Source of the DNA: Escherichia coli
GTDB taxonomy: Bacteria; Pseudomonadota; Gammaproteobacteria; Enterobacterales; Enterobacteriaceae
DNA: 64,000 nucleotides
NCBI RefSeq assembly: GCF_002854065.1
Contig: NZ_CP024147.1
Reading direction: 5' to 3' (one strand)
Shown here in pieces: positions 14,447 to 16,937 of the stretch; within the stretch, counting starts at the first letter, position 1, and each line of letters begins with the position of its first letter. Under the pieces are notes generated by a model. The model saw only the letters and a list, made by a program, of their open reading frames with translations, was not told where the DNA came from and did not search any database. Made by a program: the position numbers and the translations under genes.

Positions 14447-15421
14447 TTATGCACTTTGATGGTGTCGGGTACGGTATTTGTCGATCAGCACCGCAATGAT
14501 GATCACCGCCCCTTTGATCACCAGTTGCCAGAAGTAAGAGACGCCCATTAAGGTCATGCCATTGTTGAGCGTGGCGATAATTAGCGCGCCGACCAGCGTG
14601 CCGGTGATGGTGCCGATGCCGCCGACAAAACTGGTGCCGCCGAGGATCACCGCCGCAATGGCGTCCAGCTCGTACCCCATACCTAAGTTGCCGTTGGCGC
14701 TGTACAGCCTTGAGGCGTTCATAATTCCGCCCAGCCCTGAAAGCAGGCCGCTCATACCATAAACAAACAGCAGCACCAGCCAGACCTTAATGCCGGTAAG
14801 ACGCGCCGCCTGCATATTGCCGCCGACGGCGTAGATATGAACGCCAAGCGTGGTGCGGCGCAGAATAAACCAGCACAGCACAATCACTGCGAGGGCAATC
14901 ACCACCAGCCACGGGACCGGCCCGAGATAGTTATTGCCTATCCACTCGAAATTAATGTTGGAGTTGATAACCGTGGTGCCGTCCGCCAGCAGATACGCCG
15001 CCCCGCGCAGCGCCGTATAGGTGCCAAGCGTGACGATAAACGGTGGCAATCCGGCAAAGGCCACCAGCGCGCCGTTGAACAGCCCCAGCAGCAGGCCGAG
15101 CATCAGCGCCGCCGGGATCGACAGCATGGCGAACTCAGGGCTAAGGGAGACGACCATCGCCGCCACCGCTGTGGTGCCGAGGATCGAACCCACGGAAAGA
15201 TCGATCCCGCCGGTCAAAATGATGAAGGTCATCCCCGCGGCCAGAACAATGTTGATCGATGCCTGGCGGGTAATATTCAGCAGGTTGCTTTCGGTAAAAA
15301 AGTTTGGCGCGATAAAGCCAAATACCGCCACGATCAGAATCAAAATGGGCAAGATGCCGACCGTTTGCATCAGATCGCTCATCAGCATTTTTTTGGCAGA
15401 AGTCTTTGCAGAGGTCGTCAT
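14447..15421 (-). CDS. Sugar ABC transporter permease (RbsC/AraH-like)
   Basis: 324 aa, many hydrophobic segments, stop overlaps the ATPase gene end. Confidence 0.82.
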
Positions 15422-16937
15422 GAGGGCACCGCCTGGGAATGGGCGTCGTTGACGCCAGTCGCTAAGGTCATAATGTTTTCCTGGGTGATGTTTTTGCCGT
15501 TTAACTCACCGGCAATGCTGCCTTCGCGCATCACATAGACGCGATCGCTCATTCCCACTATCTCCGGCAGTTCGCTGGAGATCATCAGGATCGCCACGCC
15601 CTTGCGCGCCATCTCGTTCATGATCCGGTAGATCTCGCTTTTTGCGCCAACGTCCACGCCGCGGGTGGGTTCATCGAGCAGTAAAATGCGCGGCCAATTG
15701 CCACCCAGCGGGAGATCAACAGCTTTTGCTGATTGCCGCCGGAAAGCCCGCCCGCGCGTACCTGGGCATGAGGCACGCGAATGTTGAGCAACTTGATGGC
15801 GTCATCGGAAATGGTTTGCGCTTTTTTGCGATTGAGCATTCCCCAGCGGGCATCGCGCTCCAGGGTCGCCATGGTGATGTTTTCGGCTGCCGCCATTTCA
15901 AGGAACAGCCCCTGTTCTTTGCGATTTTCGGTGAGAAAGCCAATGCCAAGATCGATGGCTTCGCGCGGGGAGTGGATCACCACCGGTTCACCATCGACTT
16001 CAATCATTCCGCCTGTCGCTTTCCGCACGCCGAAGATCAACTGCGCCAGTTCGGAACGTCCGGCACCCACCAGTCCGGCGAGGCCAACAATTTCGCCGGA
16101 ACGCACCAGCAGGCTACTCGGCTGGACTTTGCCGCCGTCGGTCAGGTGGTGAACATTCAGGCGGGCTTTACCGAGCGGGATATCGCGCTCTTTATTGAAC
16201 AGATCGCTCAGTGGCCTGCCGACCATCATCCGCACCAGCTCCCCGGCATTGAGGTTATCGCGGGTCAGGCTGCCAACGTATTGCCCGTCGCGCAGCACGC
16301 TGACGCGATCGGAAAGCTCATACACTTCCGCCATGCGGTGGCTAATGTAGATAATCGCCATCCCTTCATCGCGCAGCCGCATAATCAGTTCAAACAGGCG
16401 GTGAGTTTCGCGGGAGGAGAGGGCGGCGGTGGGTTCGTCCATCACCAGAATGCGGCTGTTGCGATGTAGCGCGCGGGCGATTTCGACCTGCTGTTGCTCG
16501 GCAATGGTCAGTGTCATGACCTTATCGCTGGCGTTAAACTGCGCGCCGAGGCGGTCGATCACTCTTTGCGCCTGCACCAGCATCTCTTTACGCTGCACCA
16601 GCCCGCCGTGGGAAAGCTCGCTACCGAGGAAAATGTTCTCTGCCACCGTCAAATTGGGCGCCAGCTGCATCTCCTGATAAATCAGCGTAATACCGGCGCT
16701 TAAGGCATCTTTTGGCGTGCGAATGTGAAAGGGCTTGCCGTCTATGAGGATCTCGCCGCTGGTGGCGGTATACGCCCCCGCCAGCACCTTCATCAGCGTG
16801 CTTTTTCCCGCGCCGTTTTCCCCCATCAGGGCATGGATCTCGCCAGGGTAGACCGTCAAATCCACCCCTTTGAGCGCATAAAATTTGCCGAAGGCTTTGG
16901 CAATATTGCGCATCTCCAGAACTGGCGTGCTGTTCAT
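15418..16937 (-). pseudogene. Two-domain sugar ABC transporter ATPase (RbsA-like) interrupted by a -1 frameshift near 15687-15694
   Basis: 458-aa ORF (Walker [10 protein letters not shown], first LSGGQ-like and Walker B, second Q-loop) ends in nonsense tail ...[18 protein letters not shown], while the next frame reads [21 protein letters not shown]...; span is 1520 nt (3n+2). Confidence 0.75.

Follow-up and report, generated by a model that had tools for sequence, protein, structure and literature searches.

In the 64,000-nt stretch of Escherichia coli chromosome analysed here (the window), the gene for an ABC transporter ATPase is divided between two reading frames, which raises the question of whether the strain has lost a transporter, whether the deposited sequence lacks a base that the strain possesses, or whether the two frames still give rise to a working protein. 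The gene, which specifies a CUT2-type sugar ABC transporter ATPase with two nucleotide-binding domains (NBD1 and NBD2), occupies 15418..16937 on the minus strand and spans 1520 nt (3n+2) instead of 1521. As it stands, the 5′ reading frame (15618..16937, minus strand) runs from the start ATG at 16937 to a premature TGA at 15620-15618 and encodes 439 aa, comprising 415 native residues and a 24-aa out-of-frame tail. The −1 frame continues the native sequence past the break and ends in AVPS at the native stop at 15418. On the minus strand, the TGA (15618..15620) overlaps an ATG at 15621-15619, corresponding to native Met440, as ATGA, and the residual 3′ frame (15418..15621, minus strand), which is the native frame, could be read for 67 aa from this ATG or for 79 aa from a GTG at 15657.

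The native frame is lost after Gly415, at native Pro416, between the second signature motif and the second Walker B motif. The lesion is a C missing from the CCC run at codon 416: at 15692..15693 the plus strand reads GG (CC in the gene sense), where all relatives have GGG (CCC). In a 32-kb alignment with strain 100416 the sole gap fell at ~15693, with GG here versus GGG there, and adding one C in GGCC^GCGC gave 1521 nt and an uninterrupted 506-aa protein. An earlier reading of this DNA from its letters alone (the sequence-only reading) had described much of this, and our recomputation agreed with it on the 1520-nt span, on the restoration of the frame by one inserted C and, from the alignment with strain 100416 and the motif map below, on a lesion just 5′ of the second Walker B. 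The octamer that it placed at 15687-15694 has the sequence given but lies one base further on, at 15688-15695.

The repaired protein contains two Pfam ABC_tran domains (PF00005), at residues 22-171 (E=8e-34) and 273-425 (E=2e-18), which together with the motif map bears out the earlier assignment of the gene as an ABC transporter ATPase. Within NBD1 the map placed a Walker A at 39-47, a signature-like LTIAEQQQ at 143-150 and a Walker B at 163-170, and within NBD2 a Walker A-like GLVGAGRSE at 288-296, the signature LSGGNQQK at 398-405, the Walker B ILLLDEPT at 418-425 and ISSE at 453-456. Walker A, signature and Walker B are thus found in both halves of the repaired protein but not of the 439-aa product of the window. 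That product retains all of NBD1 together with the NBD2 Walker A and signature motifs. It lacks the last 91 native residues, among them the NBD2 Walker B (418-425), the D-loop region and the ISSE/H-loop region (453-456), and its second ABC_tran domain is short of the last 10 residues. A sequence search of the PDB for a close CUT2 structure returned nothing more specific than generic NBD matches (P-glycoprotein and ABCA4 among them), and the lost elements were placed by the motif map and not by three-dimensional structure.

In overall architecture the repaired protein resembles the CUT2 fused ATPases AraG, XylG, RbsA, AlsA and MglA, which likewise carry two ABC_tran domains on one polypeptide of ~500 aa and are partnered by an RbsC-like permease and an RbsB-like binding protein. 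It aligned end to end with the AraG, XylG and RbsA models (AraG, E=2.8e-168 over residues 3-494), but scored below the cutoff of every curated NCBIfam equivalog considered (AraG, XylG, RbsA, AlsA, MglA and LsrA), with 560 versus 689 for AraG, 527 versus 745 for RbsA and, in a further case, 545 versus 699. These sub-cutoff scores ruled out its identity as any of the six. Unlike those systems, the operon here includes a D-lyxose/D-mannose isomerase gene, and because of this context we suggest, from gene content, that the transporter probably handles a different sugar from those of the AraG, XylG, RbsA, AlsA and MglA transporters.

The ATPase gene is the first of its operon, as the sequence-only reading had proposed and as the gene order confirms. 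It is followed on the minus strand by an RbsC-like ABC transporter permease gene (14447..15421; RbsC model, 1.5e-80), an RbsB-like periplasmic sugar-binding protein gene (13487..14428; RbsB model, 1.1e-43), the D-lyxose/D-mannose isomerase gene (12749..13432; NCBIfam equivalog NF051472, 439 bits versus a cutoff of 350) and, in the same operon, genes for a ketose 1,6-bisphosphate aldolase (11874-12734) and a carbohydrate kinase (10876-11877), all of them intact. The permease start overlaps the native ATPase stop, which points to translational coupling of ATPase and permease in the intact operon. Two intact plus-strand genes flank the set: a divergent hybrid sensor histidine kinase (17051..19315), in the position of RbfS/Z5692 in O157, and a response regulator converging at the far end (10172..10879), in the position of RbfR/Z5684. 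The program-made list of open reading frames has the hybrid kinase begin at a TTG at 16955, which would leave just 18 nt to the ATPase start (16937); RefSeq relatives begin it at the equivalent of 17051, and 16955-17050 then falls in a divergent promoter region of ~113 nt separating this gene from the ATPase gene.

This locus is the known OI-167 island, consisting of RbfS, the ABC transporter, the isomerase, the aldolase, the kinase and RbfR. By synteny comparison its gene content and order match those of the O157:H7 island, between yjcS and yjdP, and the binding protein (WP_001237475.1) is identical in the relatives of the window and in O157. OI-167 is the name given to the island in enterohaemorrhagic E. 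coli (EHEC) O157:H7 EDL933, where Z5692 and Z5684 form the riboflavin-responsive RbfSR two-component system (PMC9860305); as here, the transporter, isomerase, aldolase and kinase genes lie there between the genes for the hybrid kinase and the response regulator. That study treats riboflavin sensing and regulation of LEE by the kinase and the regulator, and its main text contains none of the terms 'ABC transporter', 'Z5691' and 'operon'. The D-lyxose/D-mannose isomerase family has been characterised biochemically and structurally in O157:H7 (PDB 3KMH, cited in PMC6746899).

In K-12 MG1655 the same site holds the D-allose cassette alsK-alsE-alsC-alsA-alsB-alsR-rpiB instead. The OI-167-like island of the window (10172-19315, with yjcS at 7896-9881 and yjdP at 20129-20458) and als-rpiB are alternative sugar-utilisation cassettes, each with its own CUT2 ABC transporter. 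A gene for a GNAT-family N-acetyltransferase lies between the hybrid kinase and yjdP (19428-20060, plus strand) in the window, and also in strain 100416 and CUWW06; the O157 strain FDAARGOS_293 differs in having no GNAT gene there, with yjdP directly after the kinase.

The distribution of the two alleles is lopsided. The ATPase gene was matched in 421 of 5426 complete E. coli genomes, with 410 of these matches covering at least 80%. Of 60 rows taken at even intervals along the whole ranking of the 421 matching genomes, 58 were full-length, and every one of these spanned exactly 1521 nt, O157:H7, O55:H7, O145:H28 and commensal lineages included. A 61-nt query centred on the deletion junction found 110 of the complete genomes, none with a gap-free match to the junction. 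In a collection of 15 billion proteins, the repaired 506-aa sequence was present as a residue-for-residue identical protein on 204 contigs and the truncated 439-aa product on a single contig, an NCBI chromosome, and a metagenome scan with a pattern fitting either allele returned one contig, which carried the intact allele. Strain 100416, the closest complete genome, has an ATPase gene identical in DNA to the window copy apart from the missing base (0 substitutions, one gap), and the O157:H7 and O55:H7 copies are 97.8-98% identical to it. The intact OI-167 ATPases (WP_088375768.1 in strain 100416, WP_032282008.1 in CUWW06 and WP_001089388.1 in O157) share the position and operon order of the window copy but are encoded by 1521 nt, whereas the window copy, at 1520 nt, loses the NBD2 Walker B and everything downstream.

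Given an identical repaired protein on 204 contigs and a length of 1521 nt in 58 of 58 full-length sampled matches, the disruption of the frame is not a matter of chance. The same counts, together with the lack of a gap-free junction match, the single contig bearing the truncated product and the intact metagenomic allele, indicate that the intact gene is ancestral and the deletion private to one assembly. The sequence-only reading had pointed to the same position in related strains as a check, and there the relatives carry the extra G (plus strand GGG) and are in frame.

A private deletion can belong to the strain or to its deposited sequence. We consider it probable that it belongs to the strain, as a genuine, very recent and strain-private loss-of-function mutation that has turned a gene of an accessory carbohydrate operon into a young pseudogene of an ordinary kind. 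Compared over the 64 kb with strain 100416, which is 99.95% identical and served as the sole reference, the window showed ~22 substitutions, one 12-nt indel that keeps the frame of melB, and a sole 1-nt indel, which is the ATPase lesion itself. The ~55 other fully covered genes of the window are all intact, and the permease, binding protein, isomerase, aldolase, kinase and regulator are protein-identical to those of strain 100416. With no substitution in the ATPase gene and identical operon proteins, we lean towards a very recent date for the mutation.

The alternative that survives best is an assembly or consensus error, in which the strain truly carries CCC and an intact gene, and the deposited sequence alone is frameshifted. 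We regard this as a serious contender, though a less probable one. It fits the occurrence of the deleted allele in one assembly only, set against an otherwise identical intact protein on so many contigs, and there was no independent sighting of that allele, with assemblies of public read sets included. It also fits a gene free of substitutions in a perfectly conserved operon with no further sign of decay. A short G/C homopolymer in a GC-rich context, such as the one that is short of a base here, is a setting in which consensus deletions do occur, and one indel in 64 kb is what a moderately polished long-read assembly might contain.

The pattern of differences across the window nevertheless runs against such an error. 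The window contains 228 homopolymer runs of at least 5 bases (58 of at least 6 and 15 of at least 7). Since there is no 1-nt indel other than the lesion, all 228 agree in length with strain 100416, unlike what a homopolymer-error-prone assembly would be expected to show. The lesion itself affects a run of only 3, and neither a Dam nor a Dcm motif was found near it. One frameshifted gene among ~56 also falls within the pseudogene load usual for real E. coli genomes. A generally error-prone assembly is therefore unsupported, and the single 1-nt indel and the agreement of the long homopolymers modestly favour a genuine mutation. The lesion resembles ordinary frameshifted pseudogenes, such as those that NCBI PGAP annotates as 'frameshifted': one base gained or lost in a short homopolymer, and an intact orthologue kept by near-identical strains. 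Nothing sets the ATPase case apart from them.

Comparable lesions were seen nearby in other island-bearing genomes. CUWW06 has a frameshifted phnD and a phnF with an internal stop (6415-7400 and 8306-9031 of its locus), and phnO is frameshifted in O157 FDAARGOS_293 (2947-3382 of its locus); the phn genes of the window are all intact. These lesions in phn operons suggest that isolated frameshifts are common in this region of E. coli assemblies.

Two further explanations take the deletion as real and the transporter as functional. The first is programmed recoding, in which the full-length ATPase would be recovered from the deleted template through either −1 ribosomal frameshifting or transcriptional slippage. 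Frame restoration would indeed need a −1 shift, the two frames overlap for 187 nt and a −1 shift placed precisely at GGC|C would bring back the native sequence. One in-phase A_AAG tetramer occurs at 15726, 10 codons upstream of the lesion, but a shift at that tetramer would substitute ~10 of the residues that separate the signature motif from Walker B. The 187-nt overlap contains no slippery heptamer of the form X_XXY_YYZ and no long A/T homopolymer (~8-9 bases or more) for transcriptional slippage, the longest run being an A5 downstream of Walker B. Furthermore, every relative examined encodes the ATPase in a single frame, and the frameshift is thus not conserved. The lack of a slippery heptamer, of a long homopolymer and of conservation rules recoding out for practical purposes, and we consider it highly improbable; the 'rarer recoding event' that the sequence-only reading had listed among its options is set aside, with no slippery site present and the relatives simply in frame.

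A split but functional gene, in which the 439-aa fragment energises transport either alone or with a reinitiated C-terminal piece of 67-79 aa, would draw on a complete NBD1 (Walker A, signature and Walker B) and on an ATGA overlap that could permit some reinitiation, but we reject it as barely credible, as the NBD2 Walker B (418-425), with its coding sequence across the break, is absent from both fragments, no Shine-Dalgarno sequence is evident before either candidate start (ATG 15621 or GTG 15657) and none of the 58 full-length sampled rows has a split arrangement. That the deleted allele still yields a working transporter, through low-level −1 frameshifting near the GGC-CGC junction or through the fragment plus an ATGA-reinitiated piece, strikes us as very unlikely; if true, a CUT2 ATPase without an encoded contiguous second Walker B would be rescued in an unconventional way.

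If the deletion is genuine, as we favour, its effect on the protein would follow from its position. Loss of one C from the CCC at codon 416 of the OI-167 operon ATPase gene would cause translation to exit the native frame after Gly415 and to terminate 24 codons on. The product would keep NBD1 and would have an NBD2 devoid of the Walker B strand, the D-loop and the H-loop region, a core without which this domain would presumably be unable to fold or to close the nucleotide sandwich. With the Walker B strand and all beyond it missing, NBD2 should neither fold nor hydrolyse ATP, and the transporter should be inactive.

The premature stop lies 196 nt before the permease start, and ribosomes stopping this early would be expected to weaken coupling to the downstream genes and to break the native ATGA coupling; the early stop could also invite Rho-dependent polarity. 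Termination-reinitiation at the ATGA at 15621-15618 could, more speculatively, translate the 67-aa remnant to the native stop and so keep the coupling in part. As the premature TGA overlaps a native-frame ATG in this way, polarity on the permease gene may be weaker than the sequence-only reading had assumed.

A real deletion would mean that uptake by the OI-167 transporter has only just ceased in the strain; the substrate of this transporter is presumably the sugar on which the neighbouring D-lyxose/D-mannose isomerase, aldolase and kinase act. It would be a small, fresh case of decay in accessory carbohydrate metabolism, to be annotated as a frameshifted pseudogene. If the deletion is an error, the sole consequence is a correction of the record. 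Either way the case is ordinary, being a young pseudogene or a residual assembly error that involves no new mechanism; it has little importance beyond this strain and opens no long-standing question.

Three other features of the window can be set beside the ATPase lesion. In fdhF (506-2653, minus strand), an in-frame TGA encodes the selenocysteine expected in formate dehydrogenase H; it occurs in strain 100416 too and is not a lesion. The 12-nt in-frame indel of melB (49374-50795, plus strand) lies at 50493-50504, where the window has ATGGTGGTGAAG and strain 100416 is without it. Lastly, the yjdN-yjdM intergenic region holds a palindrome-rich, REP/BIME-like tandem array (32007-32386) with a 100-nt period, 3.8 copies and 98% identity. 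The yjdN-yjdM spacer measures 457 nt in the window and in CUWW06 versus 257 nt in strain 100416, indicating that the copy number of the array varies between near-identical strains.
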